Below, piece after piece: positions 1-46,214 of a DNA stretch of 46,214 nt. Made by a program: the position numbers and the translations under genes. Position 1 is the first letter of the stretch. Every line of letters starts with the position of its first letter. Source of the stretch: a virus (lineage: Duplodnaviria; Caudoviricetes); IMG/VR virus record IMGVR_UViG_3300033417_000015, positions 1 through 46,214 of that record. The stretch is one strand, 5' to 3'. The notes below the pieces were generated by a model. The model was given only the letters and a program-made list of their open reading frames with translations. It ran no database searches and was not told where the DNA came from.

Positions 1-174
1 ATCTGTTTTGACGTAAAGCACGGTGACGACATCCTGCGGCGCGCCTATGTCACGTCCAGCGGCGACTTGTTCTGCGACCGCTGTGGCAGCCGCCATGACG
101 CGGAAGAAGAAGAAGAATCCTATGCGATGGAGTACGACGGATTTGAGTACGACGAGGAGCCGACCGATGAGTAA
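1..174 (+). CDS. 3' part of a small Cys-containing protein (ICFDVKHG...FCDRCG...EEPTDE*), likely continuing the ORF at 45940
   Basis: Frame 1 is open from base 1 to TAA at 172-174 and ends in the array junction motif. Confidence 0.65.
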   Translation: MCFDVKHGDDILRRAYVTSSGDLFCDRCGSRHDAEEEEESYAMEYDGFEYDEEPTDE

Positions 175-484
175 CGAACAACTCAAATCGCAACAGCAGG
201 ATATACACCCGTTTTATTCGGGCAGTCAGTATGCCGATTGGACTATCTGCAATTGCGCGCGTTGCTCCAAAGGCGCGCACTTGCTGGGGCCAGATGCCTT
301 GCCGACTTGTGAAATTGAGCTTGCGCTAGGCGAGGCGTACATACTTGACGGCAAAGTTAATGCGGAGATTGCGAGACGGATGGGGTATGCCGCCGAGGGG
401 TGGGCGTATACGTGGCAGTGCCACGAGGTTAACTGGACGGATGAGTGGAAAGCGGAGTGCAACAGCCTTGACGTACTCCCATGA
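167..484 (+). CDS. Cys-rich hypothetical protein (MSNEQLKSQQ...), C-terminus altered by an IS605-type insertion
   Basis: ATG inside the junction motif with AGGAG SD. Removing 468-806 restores the ending ...ECNSRKGGDR* with an ATGA overlap into the next gene. Confidence 0.8.
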   Translation: MSNEQLKSQQQDIHPFYSGSQYADWTICNCARCSKGAHLLGPDALPTCEIELALGEAYILDGKVNAEIARRMGYAAEGWAYTWQCHEVNWTDEWKAECNSLDVLP

Positions 485-696
485 CTAAAGTCAAGGGATT
501 CTGGGGTCAAACATGGGATGCCCCTACAAAGGGTCTTACTCTCACTAGCCCAAGAGGAGACGCCCCTCCTCATACAGCAATTTGTTGCACTTTGGCGTTA
601 CAGATTTTACGTGTGGGACTTCCCCACACAACCGCATAATCTATAGTTTTAAGGTGCTACACAGTGGAGGATATTACCCCGTCTCACTGGGTTGTA
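468..696 (-). ncRNA. Putative TnpB omega-RNA (reRNA)-like scaffold; the guide would be the flanking 467-~448
   Basis: Extended -10 TGcTATACT at 711-703 points toward the right end. The 3' part GGGGCGTCTCCTCTTGGG...GTAAGACCC...GGGGCA...TTGACCCCAGAATCCC resembles IS605 tnpB right-end RNA. Internal long hairpin at ~599-645. 5' end is estimated. Confidence 0.6.
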
Positions 697-806
697 TCTA
701 CCAGTATAGCATATTTTTAGGTTGTTTATTGTGTCAGATGGCTGACAGATGCAGCGGGCATTCATCCAACGGTTAAAACACGTTGGCTTTCTGCCCGAAA
801 GGACTC
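468..806 (-). mobile_element. Non-autonomous IS200/IS605-family element (no tnpA or tnpB)
   Basis: On the minus strand it is inserted 3' of TTAC. Left end has AAAG at the foot of hairpin CCAACG...CGTTGG. Right end is GAAT-CCCTTGACTTTAGTCATGGGA-GTACG-TCAA. No target duplication. Precise excision restores gene coupling. Confidence 0.88.
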
Positions 807-822
807 GTAAAGGAGGCGACCG

Positions 823-1032
823 ATGAGTGACAATAGTGTTGATGTTGCGCGTCTAACAGATGCCGTCAATTGCCTAATCGAAGCCAAATGGCGCATTGAC
901 GAAGCGGTAACAAATATCGCAGACGCTCGCCTTTCTGATGCCGTCAATAGCCTGTTTATGGATACCAAGCTGACGATTGAGATGCTAGAGGAACGCATTC
1001 GGAAGTTGAAAAGGGAGCCGACCGATGAGTGA
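823..1032 (+). CDS. Small helical hypothetical protein (array cassette)
   Basis: Starts MSDN in the junction and ends REPTDE* in the next junction. Confidence 0.85.
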   Translation: MSDNSVDVARLTDAVNCLIEAKWRIDEAVTNIADARLSDAVNSLFMDTKLTIEMLEERIRKLKREPTDE

Positions 1033-1252
1033 CAATAAATTCAGCTTGATATGTAACGATGGCGAAAATCTCGAGATCAAAAAATTGAAACTCGCTGCTG
1101 TCAAAACAACGACGGAGCGCGGCGTGATCGTGGAGATACACTACGCCCTGGAGCTGGACGATGAAACTACCGCGCCGCCCGCGAGTGAGACACACCAGGC
1201 ACAGGAGCCGACAGATGAGTTACAACATGAACAAAATGGTGGAAGTGGTTGA
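1025..1252 (+). CDS. Small hypothetical protein (array cassette)
   Basis: Starts MSDN. Reads through QEPTDE because the junction TGA is TTA at this copy. Confidence 0.8.
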   Translation: MSDNKFSLICNDGENLEIKKLKLAAVKTTTERGVIVEIHYALELDDETTAPPASETHQAQEPTDELQHEQNGGSG

Positions 1253-1553
1253 CGATTGGGCAAAGCGCCATCGCATAAAGCGCGAAGCAGCCGATGAAGT
1301 AGGCATTGCGATAGAGAGAGTGTGCAACTACTACGAAGTCCGTCTGCGCGTCGCGCAAGCCGACCGCGACGACTTGACCGCCAAGCTGGATGCTGCACAG
1401 GCACGCATTGCGGAGCTAGAGGCGCAGCTCGCCACTGCAAGCGCGAGAGCCGAGGAACGTGAAGCGGCTCTAAGGAGAGAACTGCGAACTTGGTCTAGGT
1501 TCGCAAACGTAGCGGACGATCTATTTGGCGCAAAGGAGCCGAGCGATGAGTGA
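1215..1553 (+). CDS. Coiled-coil hypothetical protein (ARIAELEA motif; array cassette)
   Basis: ATG in the junction at 1215; ends KEPSDE*. Confidence 0.85.
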   Translation: MSYNMNKMVEVVDDWAKRHRIKREAADEVGIAIERVCNYYEVRLRVAQADRDDLTAKLDAAQARIAELEAQLATASARAEEREAALRRELRTWSRFANVADDLFGAKEPSDE

Positions 1554-1770
1554 CAACGTAATCCGAGAGGGCGACCGCGTGAGTTGGCGATCTAGGCGCG
1601 TCAATCGCCAGGGCAGTACGCGACGAACTGGTATTGTACTCAAGATTTATGCGTTCAAACCAGGATCTGAATATGCCTATCTCCGTCCTGACAAGGGTTA
1701 TGGCCGCCTTCAGCACATCTCGTTGCGCCGACTAAACAAAATAGATACACAGGAGCCGACCGATGAGTGA
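1546..1770 (+). CDS. Small basic protein, possible SH3/KOW-like barrel (array cassette)
   Basis: MSDNVIREGDRVSW...TGIVLKI pattern; ends QEPTDE*. Confidence 0.8.
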   Translation: MSDNVIREGDRVSWRSRRVNRQGSTRRTGIVLKIYAFKPGSEYAYLRPDKGYGRLQHISLRRLNKIDTQEPTDE

Positions 1771-2059
1771 CGAACAGCCCGTGTGGGCACACGCGCGCGT
1801 CACAGACGGATGGTATATCGTTTGTCATCCTATGGAGGATGATACATTGCAGCGTGTCGAGGATGGACGCATGGACGATGGCGGCGGCGATTTTGCGTTG
1901 ACGCTGCTCCAACACGGCTATACATTCCGCCCCGTTGAAATTATCCCCGTTGAGGAACGCGAACGGTGGCGAGAAATGAACGCCGCGCTCGCCGCGCGCA
2001 TTGCCGAGCTAGAAGCCGCGCTGGACGCGGCGCGCGAGACGCAGCCGCCTGAAAATTGA
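1763..2059 (+). CDS. Hypothetical protein with C-terminal ARIAELEA coiled coil (last array cassette)
   Basis: Starts MSDEQ in the junction. Confidence 0.85.
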   Translation: MSDEQPVWAHARVTDGWYIVCHPMEDDTLQRVEDGRMDDGGGDFALTLLQHGYTFRPVEIIPVEERERWREMNAALAARIAELEAALDAARETQPPEN

Positions 2060-2075
2060 CGCGTTTTGACGCGTT
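2056..2075. repeat. Perfect tandem 10-mer TTGACGCGTT x2 just upstream of a promoter
   Basis: Direct reading; ends 18 nt before the -35 box. Confidence 0.7.
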
Positions 2076-2093
2076 TATTGGCGATATTGGGGG

Positions 2094-2122
2094 TTGACTT
2101 GTTTGCTTCTTTATGGTACGAT
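2094..2122 (+). promoter_or_regulatory. Strong sigma70-type early promoter
   Basis: TTGACT (2094-2099), 17-nt spacer, TACGAT (2117-2122) with extended TG. Confidence 0.8.
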
Positions 2123-2180
2123 AGAACCAAGAGAGCGACACATACGAGAGGTCGCAGAGATTAGCCAAAAGGAAACGAAA

Positions 2181-2555
2181 ATGACAATCACAGTGACCTG
2201 CCAATACACCGAAATCGAATTTGAAGCCGCCAGCAAGCGCAGCAAGAATCACCCGCTGGTTGCCGCTTTCCTTGACGAAGCCGCCAAAGATCGCTTCCAT
2301 AGTGGTGCGTACAACAAAGCGAAGGAACTGTTGACCGAGGCCAAAGGCCAGAGCAGCGACATTGACGAGATTATGACAGCCGTTCGTAACGCCCACGCCG
2401 CCTGGTGCGACGGTGAAGCCAAGCCGAAGGTGCGTATTGTCCGCCAGTGGAAGAACAATCGCCGCGACGGTTATGACGCCGACCGCGAAATCAATGACCT
2501 CGACGACTACTTCACGCAGCCGATGCGTAGCACAATCGGCGACACCGAACTTTAA
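2181..2555 (+). CDS. Hypothetical early protein
   Basis: AAGGA SD before ATG 2181, downstream of the promoter. Confidence 0.8.
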   Translation: MTITVTCQYTEIEFEAASKRSKNHPLVAAFLDEAAKDRFHSGAYNKAKELLTEAKGQSSDIDEIMTAVRNAHAAWCDGEAKPKVRIVRQWKNNRRDGYDADREINDLDDYFTQPMRSTIGDTEL

Positions 2556-2596
2556 CCCACACCGACCTGGCTATGTCGATAAACTAGCTACCGCAA
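2553..2596 (+). ncRNA. Intergenic H-type pseudoknot motif, copy 1
   Basis: P1 CGAC(2563)/GTCG(2575); P2 TGGCTA(2568)/TAGCTA(2585). Covaries with copy 2. Confidence 0.7.
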
Positions 2597-2626
2597 CCTA
2601 ACCAACCGCCACAGGAGACACACACC

Positions 2627-2929
2627 ATGGCCAGCAAGACAACCACCACGAGACTGCTTAATCTCACCGCCGGAAGTCGCACGAATCCTGTCCACGCCCA
2701 GGTTGAATTTTCCGGCACACTGACTGCTGAACTGGCCATCGCCGTCGCCAAGCGAGCGTTTGGTCATGCCGACGGCGTTACGGTACTTGACCCCGACACT
2801 GCCACGGCCTATCGTATCACTCGTGGCAAGGCTAGAAACATCACCGACCCAGAAGCCGCGGCCAATGCGATCATCGAGCAAGGCTGGCGTAACGAGCAGG
2901 CCACACAACACCGCAACGAATTTGAATAA
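2627..2929 (+). CDS. Hypothetical early protein
   Basis: AGGAG SD; 100-aa ORF. Confidence 0.8.
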   Translation: MASKTTTTRLLNLTAGSRTNPVHAQVEFSGTLTAELAIAVAKRAFGHADGVTVLDPDTATAYRITRGKARNITDPEAAANAIIEQGWRNEQATQHRNEFE

Positions 2930-2971
2930 CCCACCCCGACCCGGCCACGTCGCTTAAACTGGCCGCCGCAA
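2927..2971 (+). ncRNA. Intergenic H-type pseudoknot motif, copy 2
   Basis: P1 CGAC(2937)/GTCG(2949); P2 CGGCCA(2942)/TGGCCG(2960). Confidence 0.7.
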
Positions 2972-3004
2972 TCAAGCAACATTTAGCAGGAGACATAAAC
3001 CATC

Positions 3005-3220
3005 ATGACCAGCGCAGTATACAGTCCAGCATTTGAGGTAGTTTCCCCGTCAGGCTGGCGTTGCGCCATTTTTGCTGGCGAAAACGCCGAAGGCCGAGCG
3101 TACGAATACGCTCGGCGCAGTGCGCCCGTTGCCGTGAGTGGAGAGTTGAGTCGAGTCATCCGGCACGAAGAATACACCGTGCCAGAGAACTCCTTTGCGT
3201 GTGATCGACCCGTCGCATAA
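3005..3220 (+). CDS. Hypothetical early protein
   Basis: AGGAG SD; 71-aa ORF. Confidence 0.75.
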   Translation: MTSAVYSPAFEVVSPSGWRCAIFAGENAEGRAYEYARRSAPVAVSGELSRVIRHEEYTVPENSFACDRPVA

Positions 3221-3252
3221 CGCAATCAACCCTTTGCCAACAGGAGAAAATT

Positions 3253-3603
3253 ATGAACGAATTTAGCGATGAACTGAAGAACATGACAACTGAAGATTTA
3301 GTCCGAGCAACACTATGGATTAAAAGAGGCAGAGGCACTACTCCAGAACGAAGCGAGGGCTGGGAGGGTGTGTACCTAGATGAGGCAAGACGAAGAGATA
3401 TTTCTATCATCGTTGACCGGATCGTCAACGGCATCCGTAGCGGATACCGCGACCCCAGCAACATCCGCGAGTGCGCCCGCCAACTGGCGCACGAAGCGGC
3501 TAGCTATCACCGCAACGGATGGCGCGCAGAGGATTACGGTGCGCTGGAAAAGGCGGTGTATAGCGCCGTCGAACAAAGATTGCTGGAGCTACCTACATTA
3601 TGA
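3253..3603 (+). CDS. Hypothetical early protein
   Basis: AGGAG SD; ATGA overlap with the next gene. Confidence 0.8.
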   Translation: MNEFSDELKNMTTEDLVRATLWIKRGRGTTPERSEGWEGVYLDEARRRDISIIVDRIVNGIRSGYRDPSNIRECARQLAHEAASYHRNGWRAEDYGALEKAVYSAVEQRLLELPTL

Positions 3604-3854
3604 CCACCAACACCCGCGGCGGCGCGCGTCCCGCCGTCCGTCCCGACGATGGCCGCCACAATAACCCAGGCGGCCCAGGGCGGATGCCAAAATCGTTCAC
3701 GCTCCAGCTCGGCCAAAAACTCTTTGTCGGCGCGCACGACCGCGACGGCAACGCACTCGACAATGAATACGCGTGGACGGTCACAGATCTCAACCGCACC
3801 ACCGTCACCATCACCAGCGAGCATAGCGGCACCACCTACCGCATCCACCGCTAA
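3600..3854 (+). CDS. Small protein with RGGAR...GPGR N-terminal motif (possible DNA binding)
   Basis: Coupled start; ends just before a terminator. Confidence 0.75.
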   Translation: MTTNTRGGARPAVRPDDGRHNNPGGPGRMPKSFTLQLGQKLFVGAHDRDGNALDNEYAWTVTDLNRTTVTITSEHSGTTYRIHR

Positions 3855-3878
3855 CCGTTTCAGTGCCCACAAAAACAA

Positions 3879-3914
3879 AACGCCGCGCGGCCTGAAACAT
3901 GGCCGCGCGGCGTT
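3879..3914. terminator. Intrinsic terminator, probably bidirectional, between converging early and late operons
   Basis: 14-bp perfect stem AACGCCGCGCGGCC / GGCCGCGCGGCGTT with an 8-nt loop; T-run follows on the minus strand. Confidence 0.9.
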
Positions 3915-3934
3915 GTTGCGTGCGCGCGTTGGCA

Positions 3935-4885
3935 TCAACCACCTCCTGATACAATCTCCAGCGGCTCCAGCCACACGCTCTCCAACGCAGGAGCCGCCAT
4001 AGGCGTGCCTGTCACCGCCAGCCACGGCAAATCCACATAGCGTGTCCCTAGCGCGGTGTGCAGCCGCCGCGTGTCGGCGCGGCCATAACCAGTGCGTTCG
4101 TCATAGCCTGGCGGCTCCACGTCCACCAGCGACGCCATCAGGATGGCTGTCAGTTCGTCCAGCGTCAACGTCGGCTGCTGGCTCCAAATATAGGATGCCA
4201 TGCCGGAGACAATCGCGGCGGACGCGCTCGTGCCGTTGGCGTACAGATAGCCGCTCTCGCCAAGTGGCGCACGCACGCGCTTCCCCTGCGCGGATACGTC
4301 AATCCAAGCACCATAGCTGGACACATCTAGGTCATACGCTGCCACCGCAGTTGATGGCGCATAGGCCGCGGGGTAGAATGGCGTATCGTCGCCGCTGTTG
4401 CCTGCCGAAACCACGACTAGCACGCCAGAGGCCACCGCGTTTGAGATTGCCTCGCGCATCGGCGGATAGTCAAACGTGCCGCCGCTTGAGATGTTGATGA
4501 TACGCGCCCCATGCTCCACCGCGTAGTTGATGCCGTTGACGGTGTGATCCTGGCGCATCCGGCACATATACGATGCCTGGATGATGAGCAACTCCACCGC
4601 GGGATTCTGGTCAATCACGATGCCCGCCATGCCTGTGCCGTGCAGACAGGTGTCGAACACCCCATTGGCGTTCAACCCTTCGGTCGCGTTATACGATGTG
4701 ATGGTCGTATTGGCAAAATGCGGGTGGGCTAGGTTGATGCCGGAGTCAATGATTGCCACCGTCACAGGCGCGGGCGGGATAGTCGAATTTGGCGAATAGG
4801 TAATCGGCTCACTGGCATAGGCTGAACGCAGGGCAAAGGCGGCGAGGATGGCGGCGATGAGCCACCAGTGCCGCTTAACTGCCAT
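3935..4885 (-). CDS. Secreted subtilisin-like (S8) serine protease
   Basis: Signal peptide MAVKRHWWLIAAILAAFALRSAYA; catalytic motifs VAIIDSG, HGTGMAG, GTSASA; oxyanion SAGN. Confidence 0.93.
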   Translation of the reverse strand: MAVKRHWWLIAAILAAFALRSAYASEPITYSPNSTIPPAPVTVAIIDSGINLAHPHFANTTITSYNATEGLNANGVFDTCLHGTGMAGIVIDQNPAVELLIIQASYMCRMRQDHTVNGINYAVEHGARIINISSGGTFDYPPMREAISNAVASGVLVVVSAGNSGDDTPFYPAAYAPSTAVAAYDLDVSSYGAWIDVSAQGKRVRAPLGESGYLYANGTSASAAIVSGMASYIWSQQPTLTLDELTAILMASLVDVEPPGYDERTGYGRADTRRLHTALGTRYVDLPWLAVTGTPMAAPALESVWLEPLEIVSGGG

Positions 4886-32423: not shown

Positions 32424-33215
32424 TCACGCTTCTTGGCGCGCCTTTGGCCCTGGCCTGGGCGCAAATTCCAGATGCGCGTACGCGGCCAAGCCCTGCCACG
32501 TCAGATCGTGTCGTTTCGTTAGCGCGCCAGATTTGGGCAGGTGCGCGGGCTTGTCTGCGTCCCAGGTTGTCACGCTGGGCATCACGCCATCCACGGCCAT
32601 CAACTGTAGTTCGCCCAGGCACTCGCGTAGCGCCGCGGCCTTTTCTTCCGGGTCGAGGCGGGTGGCGCTGCGGTCGGCGCGGGTGGTCACAAGCTCAACT
32701 TCGTCGCCATCCTTGTCTTGGTCTACCTCGGCCAACGTGCGCGGCTGGATACGGCGCGGGACAAGCGGCGCGGGTGGGCTGGTTAATTTTTCGTCGCTTT
32801 TAGGAGGGGGATTTGTGCGCGGCTCTTCATCCGGCGCGCCCGCGATGGGATGCTCGGCAAGATCGGCAACGTCCCGCCATGGCGTCTGCTCGCTGCCGTC
32901 GTCGCGGACGTGGAAGCCGTTGCGCTTGTCCTCTGCCTCGTCGCGCGCAGGTGCCATCTCGCGCTTGGCCGCCTCATGGCCGAGTGCGTAGCCCTGCTTC
33001 GACAGCTTCAAGGCCATCTCGTGCGTGATAGTCACCTCGCTGATGCGTTGCATGGCCCACGCTTCCCCCCTCTCTTCGTGCCAGCGTTTGATCACGTCCG
33101 CCGCCACGCGCACGATGCCCAGCGGTAAAGTCGGCATGAGGTTGTTGTCAAACTCAGCTAACCGCGCATTGATGGCATTGGTGATTTCGCTTAGCTGGTC
33201 ATTCGTCAGTGACAT
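32424..33215 (-). CDS. Hypothetical protein with a C-terminal putative DNA-binding helical domain
   Basis: 263-aa ORF coupled to the upstream HNH gene; MPSVTTWD...LP....L......TW motif. Confidence 0.75.
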   Translation of the reverse strand: MSLTNDQLSEITNAINARLAEFDNNLMPTLPLGIVRVAADVIKRWHEERGEAWAMQRISEVTITHEMALKLSKQGYALGHEAAKREMAPARDEAEDKRNGFHVRDDGSEQTPWRDVADLAEHPIAGAPDEEPRTNPPPKSDEKLTSPPAPLVPRRIQPRTLAEVDQDKDGDEVELVTTRADRSATRLDPEEKAAALRECLGELQLMAVDGVMPSVTTWDADKPAHLPKSGALTKRHDLTWQGLAAYAHLEFAPRPGPKARQEA

Positions 33216-33891
33216 GACCCCAAACCTTTCTGTTGATAATCATACCAACAAGACTGACGGACACCCCGAAACGCTTAGCAATTCTCGTCCGATCTCCTCG
33301 GCGAAATACCTGGCTTCTAATAAATCGCACCTGCTCTTCGGTCAGCTTGGCTCGCGGGTGAAATTCTCCTTTTTGCCCATGCCAAGTTCGCCGTGACCGC
33401 TCTACTACATCATCCATATTGTCTTGGGCCGTACCCGCATACAGGTGGTTGGGGTTGCAGCACGGCGGATTGTCGCATTTATGTAGCACCCAAAGGCCAT
33501 CTGGGATTTCGCCGAAGTGGATAATGTACGATAGGCGATGGGCGAATAGTTGCGTCTTGCCATCCTCCGAATGACTCAGAACCCCATACCCTCCATCGTT
33601 GATTCTTCCCCGCCATAGCCAGCAACTGCCTGAATCGCCAGGCTCAAGAAATTGCCAAAACTTTTCGGACGCTGAGCGCTTTGGCCCACGAGTATGGGTC
33701 GGAAGAAAGCGAACTGGCTCGCCAGCAGAATGACCATATTTCATGTTGGTTAGCTTCGCGATAGGCGCATCTGCACCACACCCACATTGACATTCACCAT
33801 AAGGTGCGATCAATCCGTGAGATGCTACCCACGGTGCATAGTCGTCTATATTTTCGGGAAAGAAGGACGTTGGGGTATGATCGAATTGCAT
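33199..33891 (-). CDS. HNH homing endonuclease (paralog A)
   Basis: CQCGCG; CWLWRG...GYG...AHRLSY...VLHKCDNPPCCNPNHL...N; C-terminal HTH. Start reassigned to ATG 33891 after GAAAGG SD. Confidence 0.92.
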   Translation of the reverse strand: MQFDHTPTSFFPENIDDYAPWVASHGLIAPYGECQCGCGADAPIAKLTNMKYGHSAGEPVRFLPTHTRGPKRSASEKFWQFLEPGDSGSCWLWRGRINDGGYGVLSHSEDGKTQLFAHRLSYIIHFGEIPDGLWVLHKCDNPPCCNPNHLYAGTAQDNMDDVVERSRRTWHGQKGEFHPRAKLTEEQVRFIRSQVFRRGDRTRIAKRFGVSVSLVGMIINRKVWGHVTDE

Positions 33892-33997
33892 CAGAATCAC
33901 CTTTCTGGTGTCAGGCCGCAGGGTGTTCAAAGCACCGCTGCGGCTACTTATTCGTAGGGCTTCATTATACCAAAATTCGCTCAAAGTATCCCCTCCC

Positions 33998-34552
33998 CTA
34001 AACACGTTCGCTTGGCTCAATAAAATCCATATCCCACAAGCGGAACAAATCCGCCTCGCTCTCCAAATCAATGGCCCTGCCGCTGTTCCAAACGCGGCCG
34101 CCCTGCACGCGTAGGTGTTCCGGCCTGTAACCCCCCTGGCTTTTGGCAGTGACCATCCGTCGCGAGAAGTCGCTGGAGCCTGTGCGGAGCATGTACACAA
34201 CAGACCAACACGCAGGCAAGGGCAGGAACAAATCAACCTTGATGCGCGTGCCTGGTTGCCACTCAAAGCTAAATGCCTTGTATTTTGGGCCGTTCTTGCT
34301 CAGCGTGACGGGCCATTGCGCCAGCAGATCATCAACTTCGCTGGTATTCATCGGATCGCCAATCAAATTGGTATGTAGCTTCGGGGTGGCAACGATCTCA
34401 ATGTCTCCCACCATCGGCCTGTTACGGCGTAAACTTCCAGCGATTTCGATGCGCCAACACGCTGGGCGCAAAGCCGCAACGATATGATCGGCAACTCGTA
34501 GCATTTGGGCGTGCGGATGCTTTTTGGTCTCACTCACGGTACATGCTTCCAT
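33998..34552 (-). CDS. Minimal family X DNA polymerase (palm and thumb only)
   Basis: IEIAGSLRR...VGDIEIV, KVDLF, RTGS, ESEADLF...FIEPSER. No 8-kDa, fingers or PHP domains. Confidence 0.88.
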   Translation of the reverse strand: MEACTVSETKKHPHAQMLRVADHIVAALRPACWRIEIAGSLRRNRPMVGDIEIVATPKLHTNLIGDPMNTSEVDDLLAQWPVTLSKNGPKYKAFSFEWQPGTRIKVDLFLPLPACWSVVYMLRTGSSDFSRRMVTAKSQGGYRPEHLRVQGGRVWNSGRAIDLESEADLFRLWDMDFIEPSERV

Positions 34553-35208
34553 GTCTTCCGGCTAACAGCGTCCCTTATCGTTGCCTCAGAGACCCCGTGC
34601 ATAACGCCCAGTTCCACGTAGGTGATCTTGCTGTTCGACGCTCTCATTGCTCGGATTTCAGTCACACCCGAAGCGTCGAGTTTGGCCCAGTGATTTTTCT
34701 CCCCGCGTGCGTTTCGTCCCTTCGCAACACTATCCAAGCTATTATCTAGCTGTGTTCCCGGGAAGATGTGTGCGGCATTGCAGCACGCACGCACATCACA
34801 CTTATGACATGCCAATAAATCAGAAGCAATCGGCCCGTTGGTGATTTCGTAAGCCATTCGATGGGCGGCATAGGTCTTTCGTTTCCACATAAACGCTCCG
34901 TATCCATTCGCGCCTATGGCGCCCTGCCATAACCAGCACTCGTCTGCGTCTCCTGGCGTCAAATGAGACCAAAAAGCGTCCGCAGTGGTGGGAGCTGTGC
35001 GAGTTTTTCCCCAATGACCATGCGCGTAGCGTTTTGGATGATACCGCAGATAACCATACGCCGTGTGCGATTGCCTTGCTGTGGGCGCAATCAAACCGCA
35101 CCCGCATTGACATTCACCATATGGCGCGGTCAAGCCGTGGGTAGCTACCCACAGCGCATAATCTTCTAGGTTTTTTGGAAAATAGGGAGCTAGAGTATGA
35201 TTTGACAT
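34534..35208 (-). CDS. HNH homing endonuclease (paralog B)
   Basis: Collinear with paralog A (DYAxWVAxHGLxAPYGECQCGCG); CHKCDVRACCNAAH. Start at ATG 35208. Confidence 0.92.
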   Translation of the reverse strand: MSNHTLAPYFPKNLEDYALWVATHGLTAPYGECQCGCGLIAPTARQSHTAYGYLRYHPKRYAHGHWGKTRTAPTTADAFWSHLTPGDADECWLWQGAIGANGYGAFMWKRKTYAAHRMAYEITNGPIASDLLACHKCDVRACCNAAHIFPGTQLDNSLDSVAKGRNARGEKNHWAKLDASGVTEIRAMRASNSKITYVELGVMHGVSEATIRDAVSRKTWKHVP

Positions 35209-35375
35209 GGTATCTACGCCTCGAACGTAGGTACTGAAAGGGTAGCGGTGCTGCTTCAACAGCCCGCTACTTTTCGCGTGGTTTACTCCTGTATTATACC
35301 ACCACTCGACCATTTGTTCTAGTGGCACACCGTCGGGCGGGTATGTCGTGGTCATCTCAAATGTCAACGTGTTGT

Positions 35376-35558
35376 TCATCTCGGCTCCTTCCACGGCACG
35401 CGGTACTTGAATCTCGCGGTCGCGTGGCACATCGTACAACTGCTGTCGCCACACGTGCAGAATACGTGGTTGCGATTTTCACGCATGATGCACCGGCGAC
35501 CGCAGGGCGTGTTGCCTTTGTGCCCCGCGCGGCGTGGGGTGGGCGGGGTGGTGGTCAT
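35376..35558 (-). CDS. Small Cys-rich hypothetical protein
   Basis: ATGA-coupled; CTCGDSSCTMCH; ends KEPR* in a partial junction motif. Confidence 0.55.
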   Translation of the reverse strand: MTTTPPTPRRAGHKGNTPCGRRCIMRENRNHVFCTCGDSSCTMCHATARFKYRVPWKEPR

Positions 35559-37934: not shown

Positions 37935-38941
37935 AGTAGACCTTGCTCTCGGAACTTGCGCTCCACTTCTTCAAATGCCGCCTTTGTGCGGTCGCTCTTG
38001 ATGGCAACCTTGTAGCCGTTGCTCGCCACCTGCGTGCCAGCGACCTCGCGATGCTTGTCGGGGACGCCCTGCTGATACCAGTCAAGAATTAACTGCACAT
38101 TGCGCGGATTCTTGAACCCGGCGCGGCTGTACGCCGTCACCACCGCGCGCAACTTGTCCAGGTCGGGACAGAGCCGCACTAGGTCGTCTTCTTGCGGGCT
38201 GGTAAGCCGCGCGTCGTTTTGCTGCACGTCGAAACGCTCATAGTAGACCTCGACCGCACTCGCACCCGCGCCGGGCCGAATGTAGCCGGTGCCGCGGTCA
38301 AAGTGGCGGCTGTCAACGTGCGGTGACTTGAAATGCAGCTTGCCGTCTTTGCCTTTTCTGGAAGGAAGCTCAACTGGCGTAGCCTGCGCGGGCGGGCGCG
38401 GGGCGCTTGCGCCCTCCCTCCCTCTCTTTGCTGTAGTCTCTGATGTTGTCTCTGTACGAACAGGTAAATCCCCTTTGGGCGCTTTCCAGGTAGATTCCCT
38501 TTGGTCACTTACTAGGTAAATCCCTTTTAGGCATTTACCTAGTAAATCCCGATTCAGCATGTACCAGGTCACTCGACTAGCATCCGTCCAATACAGCACC
38601 AAGCTCTTGGCATCGGTGCTGTCCATCACCTCAAACTTGCTTTTGCCGCGTGTGATCTTGGTGGCTATATGTGCCAGCGCGGCGTCAAACTCCTTGACGG
38701 AAAAGCCTAGCTCCTCCGTCCAACTGTCGCCGGGCCGGTAAAGTTCATGGCTGCATGGGGCGCGGAATTTATAGAAGGTGGCATCGTCATGGTTTTGGCT
38801 GCGAAAAATAATCTGCTGCAATAGGATGGTGGACGTCACACTCCCCGCCAGCGCGCGCAGACTTTTGCGGTACGGAATAATGTTTCGATCTTCGGCGATG
38901 GCGTTGATTAGCATATCGCCAGCGGCACGTTCGTCTATCAT
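37931..38941 (-). CDS. Phage replication initiator
   Basis: N-terminal winged-helix-like ILLQQI...SWTEELGFS; TETTSETT linker; internal iterons. Confidence 0.8.
   Translation of the reverse strand: MIDERAAGDMLINAIAEDRNIIPYRKSLRALAGSVTSTILLQQIIFRSQNHDDATFYKFRAPCSHELYRPGDSWTEELGFSVKEFDAALAHIATKITRGKSKFEVMDSTDAKSLVLYWTDASRVTWYMLNRDLLGKCLKGIYLVSDQRESTWKAPKGDLPVRTETTSETTAKRGREGASAPRPPAQATPVELPSRKGKDGKLHFKSPHVDSRHFDRGTGYIRPGAGASAVEVYYERFDVQQNDARLTSPQEDDLVRLCPDLDKLRAVVTAYSRAGFKNPRNVQLILDWYQQGVPDKHREVAGTQVASNGYKVAIKSDRTKAAFEEVERKFREQGLL
38462..38550. repeat. Iteron-like repeats (putative replication origin)
   Basis: AGGTAAATCCCCTTTGG (38462), AGGTAGATTCCCTTTGG (38488), AGGTAAATCCCTTTTAG (38514), TAGTAAATCCC (38540) at 26-nt period. 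Confidence 0.8.
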
Positions 38942-42858: not shown

Positions 42859-43039
42859 GCCCGCACCTGATTCGTCCGTCGCGGCCTGGGAATCATTTCG
42901 CCTCGGTCAAGATTTCTTCACCGCCCGCGAGCCGATGAGCGCATGTCGCAACGCCGAACAGCGACGCGGCTACATGGCCGCACTAAGCGCGGCATCTGGC
43001 ACCGACACCGACATTTACTTGCGTGGAGGCCAGCGATGA
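42824..43039 (+). CDS. Hypothetical early protein (MNILTAPR...)
   Basis: GAAAGG SD; first gene after the promoter. Confidence 0.75.
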   Translation: MNILTAPRTAVKPAPDSSVAAWESFRLGQDFFTAREPMSACRNAEQRRGYMAALSAASGTDTDIYLRGGQR

Positions 43040-43230
43040 TTAGCCAAAATCAGCTTGAGTTGCTTGCCAAAAAAGCAGGCTACGCAGAACCACGCGACTA
43101 CGCTTGCGACCACGATTTGAGTCGTTGTGAAACCTGTCGCAAATGGGGCACGTTCGGCGAGGAAGTTTACAGCGACGGCGTTGACTACTACTGCGACGAC
43201 CATCGACCCGAAGGCGAGGTGGTGCGATGA
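43036..43230 (+). CDS. Small zinc-finger-like protein
   Basis: GGAGG SD; CETC...CDDH; coupled. Confidence 0.7.
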   Translation: MISQNQLELLAKKAGYAEPRDYACDHDLSRCETCRKWGTFGEEVYSDGVDYYCDDHRPEGEVVR

Positions 43231-43469
43231 CCACCACCTATAACAACAAGGCACAGGCCACCCGCGCACGTCGCCAAGCCGCTGGCCGCTACAATCGGCC
43301 CAGCGCGGCACAGCAAGCCGCCTATGGCCGCCTCGTCGCCCGCGACGGCTGGAAGAACGTCACCGTCGAGGACGCCCGCGAGCTGGCGACGACGCAACTG
43401 CTCGCCGCATCACAGCGCGAACATTTTGCGAACATTGTCGCCCAGGCAGACAGCGCGGTGGCAGCATGA
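43227..43469 (+). CDS. Hypothetical protein
   Basis: ATGA-coupled ORF. Confidence 0.75.
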   Translation: MTTTYNNKAQATRARRQAAGRYNRPSAAQQAAYGRLVARDGWKNVTVEDARELATTQLLAASQREHFANIVAQADSAVAA

Positions 43470-43678
43470 CCACCCCTACCACCACCACCCGCCGCCAGTC
43501 CGAACCCTTGACTGATGCCCAGAAAGTCGCAATTGATGCGTTCATCGCAAACTCGACTCCGGCTCAAGTCCAGCAAAGCACTGACAGCCTAGATCGGATT
43601 ATTGAGCGCATGGAACGCCTTAATCGTCGCTTTGCCGAAGATATTGAGCGAGCGCAACGCTGCTTGGAGGCCATATGA
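43466..43678 (+). CDS. Hypothetical protein
   Basis: ATGA-coupled ORF. Confidence 0.75.
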   Translation: MTTPTTTTRRQSEPLTDAQKVAIDAFIANSTPAQVQQSTDSLDRIIERMERLNRRFAEDIERAQRCLEAI

Positions 43679-43971
43679 CCACCACCGTGTCTGCCATGCT
43701 CGCCCGTCTCAACCAGGCCACCGAGCGCACCTACGCTATCGTAGAGGACGGCTGCCAGTATCGGCTGCTGATGCCCACCGGCGGCTCCTATGATGCCCAG
43801 CCAGCACAGGCACTTGCCGAGCGGATGCTACGCATCACCCTGGCCGCCGAAGGCCGAATGGCACTCCCGCCCCGCAACGGCACGCTGCAGCGAACGATTG
43901 ATTTCGGTGCCGAGCTTTCCGAATATCAGGATTGGCTTGAGGACGAAGAATGGATTAGGAGGGGTTGCTAA
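43675..43971 (+). CDS. Hypothetical protein
   Basis: GGAGG SD; ATGA-coupled. Confidence 0.75.
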   Translation: MTTTVSAMLARLNQATERTYAIVEDGCQYRLLMPTGGSYDAQPAQALAERMLRITLAAEGRMALPPRNGTLQRTIDFGAELSEYQDWLEDEEWIRRGC

Positions 43972-43972
43972 A

Positions 43973-44386
43973 ATGAGCGATACAAAATGGTGTCCAGGGT
44001 GCCGAGAATTTTTGCCCGTAACGGCATTTCAGAAATGTGCGCGTGATGGCTATCAAGCTCGTTGTCGGCAATGCCGACTCGATAACCAGCGCGCAAATCG
44101 AGAAGGGCACAAAGCGCGAGATAGGCGTTGGCGTGAGGCGAATCCCGAAAGAACCAGGGAGCGCACGCGGCGGTATCGTGAGGCACACAATGAAAAGCGA
44201 GTGGCTCACTGGAAGGTGGGAGAAGCTGTTCAGCGCGGCGAGCTGCAACCTATCCATGAGCGCGTGTGTGTTCGCTGTGGAGTTCAGGCCGAACACTACC
44301 ATCACGATTCATACGATAGGCCCTTAGACGTAACGCCTGTATGCAGTAGATGTCATAACTTGATTCACCTGGAGCTAAAATCATGA
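43973..44386 (+). CDS. HNH-type endonuclease with N-terminal zinc finger
   Basis: CPGC...CRQC; CVRC...HYHHDSYDRPLDVTPVCSRCH; AGGAGG SD. Confidence 0.85.
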   Translation: MSDTKWCPGCREFLPVTAFQKCARDGYQARCRQCRLDNQRANREGHKARDRRWREANPERTRERTRRYREAHNEKRVAHWKVGEAVQRGELQPIHERVCVRCGVQAEHYHHDSYDRPLDVTPVCSRCHNLIHLELKS

Positions 44387-45216
44387 CCAATACACTGATT
44401 GCCAAAATTGCCGCCGCCTCCATCGCGGTTGGCTCGCTTGCCACCGATAAAGTAAACGCCTCACAGAACTACAAGTACATCAGCGCCGATAAGATTCTGG
44501 AACGCGCCGGGGATGCCCTGGCGCAAGCGGGCGTGATGGTCATTCCGTCCATCACCTTTGAGGAAACCGTACAGGTCGATTACACCGACAATTATGGCAA
44601 GGCCAAAAGCCGCTTTGACGCGACAGTCCACTTTGCGATGGTGTTGGCAGATGGCGAGAGCCAGTTGGAAGTCCCCTGGCGCGGGCGCGGCAATGATTAC
44701 GCCGTTCCCGACAAGGCGCTTTACAAAGCCATCACGTCGGGTCACAAGTATTTTTTGATGAAGCTACTCAATATCGGCGTAGGGAATGAGGATGGGGAGC
44801 ATGATGAAGTCCAGGAGTCGCGCACAGCCGCCCCGCGCACACAATCTAGCACGCGCGCGCCGCAAAACGCCACAGCGAGACAGAAAACGGGGTCAGACGA
44901 CGCTCACGACGCGCTGTGGGAGCCGGAACACTACGACGCACCCGCCGATGCCGGCAGCAAAGACAAAGTTTTGAGCAAGACGCAGTTGCAACGCATCAAC
45001 GCGTTAGGCAGGAAGCTGCACCCGGAAGGCGAGTGGGACACTGAGCGCCCGCGTTACGTCGAATGGGTGACGAAGGGCGCGGTCAGCAGCTCCAAGCAGT
45101 TGCAACCCAGCGAAGCCGATACGCTGATTGCTGGGCTTGAGCGTAAATTAGCCAAGCTCGCCGCCAACGTCCAAACCACGCACGCGACCAACGGCAAAGC
45201 TCCGGTGGCAGCATGA
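44383..45216 (+). CDS. erf: ERF-family single-strand annealing recombinase
   Basis: NYKYISADKIL...GRGND...DKALYKAITSGHKYFLMKLLNI...EDGE. Confidence 0.88.
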   Translation: MTNTLIAKIAAASIAVGSLATDKVNASQNYKYISADKILERAGDALAQAGVMVIPSITFEETVQVDYTDNYGKAKSRFDATVHFAMVLADGESQLEVPWRGRGNDYAVPDKALYKAITSGHKYFLMKLLNIGVGNEDGEHDEVQESRTAAPRTQSSTRAPQNATARQKTGSDDAHDALWEPEHYDAPADAGSKDKVLSKTQLQRINALGRKLHPEGEWDTERPRYVEWVTKGAVSSSKQLQPSEADTLIAGLERKLAKLAANVQTTHATNGKAPVAA

Positions 45217-45319
45217 ACTGCACCGCTTGCGGGGAGCGCGCACGCGCACAACGTCAACAGGAACAGGGCAACTAGCCACCACACACCCGCGGCACAGCGG
45301 GCAGAAATGAGGATGCACG

Positions 45320-45670
45320 ATGAAAGCTGAAACAAGGGAGATGGTGCTAGAGGCATTGGACATGATGCTTGGCTTGGCCGAGAGCGACAAATGGCGAATG
45401 GCGCGCCCAGCGCGGCGCGAGGCATATCCAGAAGAATACGACTTTGCCGCGGCAGAGGTCGAACTAATCAAGGCCGCGATTGCCGATCTGCGCGCCGAGC
45501 CGACGCTGGAGGTTGTGCCGGATGGCGAATATATCGCACCTGGGTATAACTACCCAATCACACTGGACACAAAGCATTGCTCAATCACTGTGCCGGGAGA
45601 CAGGATAAACTATCACCCAGACTGGCGCATCATGCGCCGCGTTGACGATAACACAGGAGCCGACCTATGA
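45320..45670 (+). CDS. Hypothetical protein (first array cassette)
   Basis: GAGG SD; ends GADL* inside the junction motif at 45655. Confidence 0.8.
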   Translation: MKAETREMVLEALDMMLGLAESDKWRMARPARREAYPEEYDFAAAEVELIKAAIADLRAEPTLEVVPDGEYIAPGYNYPITLDTKHCSITVPGDRINYHPDWRIMRRVDDNTGADL

Positions 45671-45918
45671 GCAAGCCACGACAGATGCAGCCCAAGCCGC
45701 GGCGACCCGCACTCACAGCGGAGGACATCAAGGTTGGCAAGACCTATCGGGGCAAGCATCCGGCGACGATTCGGGGGCAGGTGAACGACCGCCGCGTGCT
45801 TCACGTCTCGACGTTTGGGGGCGTGCAATATGACTCATCATCCGTGGCTGACGGTCGTCAATTTCCATCTGCACCGATGGAAACATTCCTGAAATGGGCA
45901 TCCCATGAGGTTTTCTAG
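45667..45918 (+). CDS. Hypothetical protein (array cassette)
   Basis: ATG in the junction; IKVGKTYRGK motif. Confidence 0.8.
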   Translation: MSKPRQMQPKPRRPALTAEDIKVGKTYRGKHPATIRGQVNDRRVLHVSTFGGVQYDSSSVADGRQFPSAPMETFLKWASHEVF

Positions 45919-45939
45919 GACGCGAGAAGGCGGTGCATC

Positions 45940-46214
45940 ATGAGTGACGAACAACTCAAATCGCAACATCTCTGGAAGGCAATCGAAAAAAGCGGTGGAC
46001 AATGGCTTGGCAAAGCACTCCTAGATGACATCAGGCGTTTGCAAGCCGAACGAAACCAGTGGCGCAATCGCACCCATAAATTTCAAACCGCTTTGTCGGG
46101 CGCGGGGAAAGACATCCTGCGACTTGAAGGCGAGGTCGAAGAGCAACGCTGTACTATCGAAATCCTTGCGAATGGCTTGGGGCCAGGGTACAGCGGCTGG
46201 AAACGTTGCGCGCT
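45940..46214 (+). CDS. 5' part of a hypothetical protein (MSDEQLKSQHLW...), runs off the window end
   Basis: Open frame to the end; first 29 nt match the start of the gene at 167 at 28 positions. Confidence 0.75.
   Translation, partial: MSDEQLKSQHLWKAIEKSGGQWLGKALLDDIRRLQAERNQWRNRTHKFQTALSGAGKDILRLEGEVEEQRCTIEILANGLGPGYSGWKRCA

Follow-up and report, generated by a model that had tools for sequence, protein, structure and literature searches.

A repeated stop/start joint at the gene borders of a phage accessory operon, with neighbour switches at the joint in relatives

Why should a run of small phage genes be connected by nearly the same 21 bases at border after border? The question arises in the virus record IMGVR_UViG_3300033417_000015 (Duplodnaviria; Caudoviricetes), analyzed here over its full 46,214 nucleotides and referred to as the window. 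Its array of small, unrelated genes carries a short conserved sequence, the joint, at the gene borders: seven full copies and one half copy, all located at gene starts. A first-pass annotation had read these borders as short homology sites that let whole genes be gained, lost or shuffled while staying translationally coupled, an integron-like array without an integrase, plausibly served by an ERF annealing protein encoded nearby; overall, that interpretation is partly supported. We consider it likely that the joint is a translation-coupling signal of a phage accessory operon which probably also acts as a boundary sequence for general short-homology recombination. The record itself is a phage contig carrying capsid, lysin, methylase, HNH and ERF genes, listed as linear and estimated to be 73% complete; its capsid matches among cultured phages are all less than 30% identical, and a single, weak repressor-like match was found.

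Anatomy and uniformity of the joint

The joint consists of AGGAG, serving as the ribosome-binding site, a 7-base spacer and ATGAGTGA, 21 bases altogether. The upstream gene can stop within it either at ATGA, giving a 4-base overlap with the next start, or at ATGAGTGA or ATGAGTAA, giving an 8-base overlap, and both foreign frames are stopped inside the joint at five of the seven full copies. Four upstream genes end by the 8-base overlap and gene 45320 (genes are numbered by their first base) by the 4-base overlap. When an insert upstream of the 811 copy is discounted, stop and start overlap by 4 or 8 bases at six of the seven full joints, the overlap at 1203 being 38 bases. The six plus-strand copies that match the 21-mer with 0–2 mismatches lie at 155 (1), 811 (1), 1013 (1), 1203 (2), 1534 (1) and 1751 (0), precisely as first annotated, with no match in 100 shuffles; a seventh, at 45655, is diverged (four mismatches), and the eighth, the half copy at the start of gene 45940, had been missed. 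The copies are as follows.

155..175, plus strand: joint copy, 1 mismatch; ends the gene stopping at 174 (8-base overlap) and starts gene 167
811..831, plus strand: joint copy; starts gene 823 and follows the IS605-type insert by 4 bases; gene 167 natively ends here with a 4-base overlap (GGDR, then stop)
1013..1033, plus strand: joint copy; stop of gene 823 (8-base overlap), start of gene 1025
1203..1223, plus strand: joint copy whose second stop is lost; gene 1025 continues to 1252; start of gene 1215
1534..1554, plus strand: joint copy; stop of gene 1215, start of gene 1546; in relatives X4 and X5 a homolog of gene 45320 stands upstream instead
1751..1771, plus strand: joint copy, exact consensus; stop of gene 1546, start of gene 1763; in X4 the downstream partner is gene 45940, and in one X5 contig the upstream gene is unknown
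45655..45675, plus strand: joint copy with only its upstream half conserved; stop of gene 45320 (4-base overlap; GADL, then stop), start of gene 45667; 20/21 against the 1751 copy over −16 to +4
45940..45968, plus strand: downstream half joint within a 29-base repeat; start of gene 45940; the repeat is common to gene 167, and the full motif precedes gene 45940 in X4

Every copy contains the ATG of an open reading frame of 69–112 codons. The claim that each sits exactly at a gene boundary stands for the starts, but at 1203 the upstream gene reads 10 codons past the motif, to 1252.

The spacer is far more uniform among these copies than among control junctions. Mean spacer identity among the seven full copies is 0.84. 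In 100,000 random draws of seven junctions from 21 of the same class, it averaged 0.38 and never exceeded 0.61; draws from 196 looser junctions gave 0.28 and 0.55, respectively. Sharing also extends unevenly beyond the motif: the joints at 155 and 1751 agree at 25 of 26 bases, those at 811 and 1013 at 23 of 24, and the start regions of genes 45940 and 167 at 28 of 29. When the left half at 45651 is put next to the right half at 45940, 29 of 31 positions agree with the 1751 joint, which looks as though gene 45667 had been inserted into a joint. Six other starts of this phage in the same register, three on each strand, have different spacers, and the spacer variant at 1534 travels with gene 1546 in relatives X4 and X5. 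Since an identical 19-base core is ordinary elsewhere, the motif class needs no special cause, yet the uniformity within this operon does; together with the 1534 variant staying with gene 1546, the uniform spacers and flanks call for copying between joints. The conservation in excess of what a ribosome-binding site requires, which had been claimed for the spacer and for codons 2–3, thus holds for the spacer and flanks, whereas codons 2–3 are conserved mostly because the overlapping stop codon fixes them and not through recombination.

The 811 copy is interrupted on its upstream side by a mobile element.

468..806, minus strand: 339-base non-autonomous element of the IS200/IS605 type, with hairpin ends, TTAC as target and TCAA at the right end

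Its features are subterminal hairpins, a tetranucleotide target without duplication, homology to a TnpB-element end and no transposase. Over 102 bases, the 468 end shows 73.5% identity to the end of a TnpB element from a Rhodothermus plasmid, beginning at the same base, and the four bases outside the other end are identical in the two elements; because this homologous element shares both boundaries, the ends of the insert are fixed at 468 and 806. One X5 contig departs from the window at 468, and pieces of the insert occur in X1, X3 and X5. The hairpins fold, although not significantly compared with shuffles (z −0.8 and −1.2). With the insert removed, gene 167 stops at 826, in the frame reading GGDR before its stop codon, as the first-pass annotation had restored it, so that the insert costs the gene only its last codons; an alternative native end by the 8-base overlap was dropped once the insert boundaries pointed to the 4-base overlap. 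The element may still produce a TnpB guide RNA.

Neighbour switches in relatives

Relatives of the window were taken from assembled contigs of public metagenome runs, six of the ten listed runs being compared (X1 to X6). Contigs of four runs were aligned to positions 1–3000 and contigs of four runs to 45150–46214, and we examined 24 of 42 loose contig ends for the first region and 13 of 13 for the second, matching the loose letters to other parts of the window by eye. The majority of the examined ends were set aside as 33–40-base matches to GC-rich stretches coding for coiled coils, and X2 and X6 gave no informative contig end. X1 is near-identical to the window and keeps its order over 1276–2008 and 45600–45750.

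Three different neighbour switches at the joint are seen in X4 and X5. One, present in both, connects the 3' end of a gene-45320 homolog, through a variant joint, to a homolog of gene 1546; 26 of the 30 loose letters agree with 1533–1562, and the same X5 contig also aligns to 1534–1608. In X4, gene 45940 begins (41 bases without a difference) behind the last part of gene 1546 and a full joint, with 27 of 30 letters matching 1733–1762. In one X5 contig, an unknown gene with another ribosome-binding site precedes gene 1763, the break lying at the ATG, and another X5 contig retains the 1546–1763 order. In all three contigs whose loose letters could be placed elsewhere in the window, the joint is where the switch occurs. 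The alignment of relatives proposed with the first-pass annotation thus bears out changes of gene content at the motif, with the genes remaining coupled in their layout. Genes 1546 and 45667 appear to be alternatives for one slot, gene 1546 occupying a different one in the window, and from two separate X4 contigs we infer the order 45320–1546–45940 in one genome. No excised-circle joint was listed among the aligned run contigs.

The same relatives bear on the frame in which the joint is read. By hand reading, the gene-45320 homolog of X4 and X5 carries two extra bases ahead of AGGAG and stops with the 8-base overlap, whereas the window copy ends by the 4-base overlap, in the GADL frame that had been annotated at 45655 and is present in the sequence. 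One gene therefore ends in either frame in different phages, in agreement with the proposal that the constraint acts on nucleotides rather than on the peptide.

The annealing protein invoked for the exchanges is encoded at the other end of the record.

44383..45216, plus strand: ERF-family single-strand annealing protein (PF04404, 32.1 bits against a cut-off of 25; phrog_155, E 5.5e-24)

The gene is a true ERF and lies in the same orientation as the array, 100 bases before gene 45320. Its placement just upstream of 155–2059 depends on how the two ends of the record relate. X1 contigs extending 99 and 42 bases beyond the window ends do not align to the opposite end, and a 46,501-base contig encodes the same proteins as the window; bases 46214 and 1 probably do not abut, and at least ~100 bases seem to be missing. 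Exact closure of the contig via a one-base slip near 46180 was considered and dropped, X1 having no indel there and the over-running contigs missing the other end. Since the two ends are probably not adjoining, the closeness of ERF to 155–2059 follows from the joins in relatives and is not read from the contig.

Beyond these runs, no relatives of the window were found in viral or genome collections. The exact 21-mer occurs at no locus in the viral contigs, where genes 167 and 45667 as queries also gave no relatives, and in tblastn against the foreign loci gathered the array genes had no match, ERF alone being matched. Scanning the extended joint pattern over genomes returned three single, unrelated junctions, and no RNA dataset holding pieces of the window was listed among the public runs.

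Gene origins and competing explanations

The array comprises ten genes.

1..174, plus strand: 3' part of a small gene with a cysteine pair and an acidic tail; start probably just before base 1; no family
167..484, plus strand: gene 167, small, cysteine-rich; last codons replaced by the insert; first 8–9 codons common to gene 45940 and absent from homologs
823..1032, plus strand: gene 823, 69 aa; predicted helical hairpin
1025..1252, plus strand: gene 1025, 75 aa; no family
1215..1553, plus strand: gene 1215, 112 aa, coiled-coil; weak coiled-coil matches only
1546..1770, plus strand: gene 1546, 74 aa, basic; 8 distant homologs; observed in two different slots
1763..2059, plus strand: gene 1763, 98 aa, last of the array; promoter-like site at 2094–2122 downstream; no homolog besides itself
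45320..45670, plus strand: gene 45320, 116 aa, first of the array
45667..45918, plus strand: gene 45667, 83 aa, phrog_9722; between the halves of the split joint; family in 87 cultured phage records
45940..46214, plus strand: gene 45940, coiled-coil; runs off the window end

No named function was found for the array genes, and PADLOC gave no match for nine of the ten proteins and weak coiled-coil matches only for gene 1215. The structure-atlas matches of gene 823 are generic helical ones, with one Sequestin-cluster row below the bar of the tool, which is a lead only, and no Pfam match. Genes 1215 and 1763 share a coiled-coil-encoding repeat within their coding sequences, at 1401–1446 and 1994–2039 (33 of 46 bases); in its vicinity several contigs stop or fork, and it may be another crossover point.

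Joint-type ends are absent from the distant homologs, being found in none of eight for gene 1546, five for gene 167 and two for gene 45667. Considering that gene 167 in addition bears the first codons of gene 45940, the genes were presumably fitted with the joint in this lineage, and the fitting would have occurred through crossovers at or just inside the gene ends. In the mechanism we favour, genes from the common phage pool would first be taken up through microhomology located at their ends or a few codons further in, thereby gaining the joint, a step that would account for gene 167, with its start from gene 45940, and for gene 45667, which splits a joint. Out-of-register crossovers between joints would then add, drop and move genes while keeping the copies alike, and, as the joint halts both foreign frames and provides a start, most products would remain translated and coupled. 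General recombination would suffice for this, and ERF is a plausible catalyst or helper, no dedicated recombinase being needed. The Erf protein of phage D3 recombines diverged DNA, as reported in the available text of PMC3945230. The position of the gene is a separate matter. Annealase genes often sit among small early genes, and the closeness of ERF to the array therefore says little.

Several observations weigh against recombination at the joint or limit the evidence for it, and some of them would also be expected if the joint were a strong translation signal reached by convergence, with genes joined at random (illegitimately) and selection retaining the products that break at borders. Border breaks are also expected when selection acts after random joining, and other breaks fall within coding sequence: X3 departs from gene 1763 at 1977 and differs at 43, and in one X5 contig 93 bases of gene 45320, between 45528 and 45622, are replaced by 120. 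The switch contigs are only 151–391 bases long with a depth of 3–5; X4 and X5, though listed under two studies, are both 2025 soil sets and may represent one campaign; and no deletion joint within 1–3000 was listed in four runs. The spacer control is small and omits junctions picked by the search patterns. The identical 19-base core occurs as a single, ordinary coupled junction in foreign metagenome loci, with one copy in 44 of 46, including purE–purK and the junctions at which gatB, homoserine dehydrogenase and a bioH-like gene begin (five proteins at four loci tested), and a ribosome-binding site, a start and two stops already fix about 13 of the 21 positions. Against a link with ERF, neither of the two loci with ERF relatives (L172, L173) contains such an array, and the longest exact runs common to joints are 5–22 bases, below the 23–27 quoted for Red-beta. 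Similar joints exist in unrelated phages, where a group of low-GC phages (L106 307–1386, L132, L074, L061, L116, L282) has a joint of its own and differing gene lists between shared anchors, a pattern in line with the mechanism favoured here; one end lies within 5 bases of a joint in six of seven homology blocks, but of the 14 block ends only six are that close and eight are not. We nevertheless regard a translation signal alone as improbable. The first-pass annotation had itself set its homology sites against a plain translation signal common at other genes, and single copies in housekeeping operons do fit such a signal, but the 7-base spacer and flanks of up to 29 bases are alike far beyond controls, six same-register starts of this phage have other spacers, and the 1534 variant follows gene 1546.

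The alternatives that ask more of the joint differ in what they would have it do. In the most far-reaching of them, the joint would be a selected, frame-proof universal connector on which many unrelated phages have converged with spacers of their own, ERF driving frequent capture and reordering as a recombinase-free cassette system. Besides the low-GC group, the unrelated phage L239/L240 has nine similar stop/start joints in a row, with both frames used (1545–5040 in L240), and three or more similar start regions per locus were seen in nine of 190 fetched loci of at least 3 kb, some of them redundant; in five unrelated array-bearing records, only 15–56% complete, neither ERF nor Rad52 was found (0/5 each). 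We hold this extended proposal to be unlikely, though worth entertaining. A dedicated integron-like system, in which ERF or another phage protein recognises the joint and moves single genes via circles, would account for single promoterless genes between direct repeats (no promoter-like site was found at any joint), for switches at the repeat and for the position of ERF, and its recombinase could be missing from a record ~73% complete. However, no tyrosine or serine recombinase is present in the record at that completeness (0/1 each for PF00589, PF00239 and PF07508), no GTTRRRY core lies near the eight joints (RYYYAAC lies near one joint only), and plus-strand folding is not significant at 1013 and 1751 (z +1.31 and −0.95), with −2.41 at 155 arising from the flanks. 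Moreover, the crossover point ranges from the ribosome-binding site to 29 bases into the gene, unlike site-specific recombination. We thus judge a dedicated system very unlikely, and the integron-like part of the original interpretation is not supported. Equally hard to credit, and if anything harder, is a regulator-binding site for translation or transcription, similar to an operator or to the start-associated sequences (SASs) of mycobacteriophages, with recombination as a side effect. The joint is asymmetric, restricted to one strand and to non-structural genes, and always placed at a start codon with AGGAG, as far as the available text of PMC3203893 describes for SASs; but no copy lies in promoter-like or divergent intergenic regions, the spacer differs at several positions among copies and relatives, sharing extends unevenly into coding sequence, and no candidate binding protein was found.

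Other features and relation to known systems

Elsewhere in the record, three tandem 26-base repeats at 38461–38538, within an O-like replication gene, are probably origin iterons. On the minus strand (33199–35454), two HNH endonuclease genes lying 1.3 kb apart are paralogs, 72% alike across 152 bases, and a subtilase-family protease with a likely signal peptide is encoded on the minus strand at 3935–4885, at the end of the tail module. A run of small genes at 42943–43971, before an endonuclease gene and ERF, contains three that start MTT and overlaps of the ATGA type, possibly an older, decayed junction family. Similar intergenic hairpin-like elements at 2556–2600 and 2930–2975 stand before genes 2627 and 3005, each followed by AGGAGACA (by eye). 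An Rfam scan of 1–4000 returned one chance match, below the gathering score.

In integrons, too, single promoterless genes form arrays whose content changes at repeated borders, with an integrase and an attC core and hairpin; here, integrase, attC core and hairpin are all absent and the crossover point is variable. A further lead, and a lead only, is the internal-protein (IPI) locus of T-even phages, in which variable small genes are exchanged at a short repeat covering the start region.

The closest precedent for the reading we favour, a coupling signal that also guides general recombination, is an old proposal for phages, that of general recombination at short boundary sequences (Susskind and Botstein 1978; Clark et al. 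2001, both as cited in the available text of PMC3029335, where gene 67/68 of Island3 is the boundary-sequence case). As with those boundary (linker) sequences, a short common sequence marks the border and mosaic breaks fall on it; unlike them, as far as that text describes them, one joint of ~21 bases stands here at eight consecutive borders of one genome and is itself a coupling signal that stops both foreign frames. The promoter early stem-loop (PeSL) cassettes of T4-type phages (Arbiol et al. 2010, PMC2839356), as presented in the accessible parts of that paper, likewise have repeats ending in a Shine-Dalgarno sequence and start codon and flanking small unknown genes, with indels between relatives that break at the repeats and no dedicated recombinase, and their authors draw the comparison with integrons. 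The Shine-Dalgarno/start end and the indel breaks are found at our joint too, a sigma-70-like promoter and a stem-loop are not: PeSLs are intergenic, with a promoter, a stem-loop and demonstrated mini-circles, whereas the joint overlaps both genes, lacks promoter and hairpin, and occurs in a 46-kb phage record.

The SASs of cluster K mycobacteriophages (PMC3203893, in part) are asymmetric AGGAG repeats before the ATG of non-structural genes, conserved beyond 16S pairing, as is the case here. They have another 13-base consensus, of which only the AGGAGCC part is common (by eye), are scattered over a genome arm and have been read as a translation element, whereas the joints considered here are consecutive, span stop and start, and have switches at them. 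Overlapping stop and start codons with an intragenic Shine-Dalgarno sequence also characterize termination-reinitiation (PMC6728339), which, in the portion of that work available, does not predict identical spacers at successive junctions. In the open-access literature, we found no direct description of a two-frame stop/start joint as a swap point.

The locus reveals no new enzyme system. How phages acquire and rearrange small accessory genes has long been asked, the choice lying between exchange guided by boundary sequences and random joining followed by selection, and for that question the joint array is a compact test case: recombinants occur naturally at either border of one gene, a joint has been split, one gene bears a grafted start, and a single gene is seen to end in two frames of the joint. 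The value of the locus lies in this test case and in the frame-proof design of the joint.

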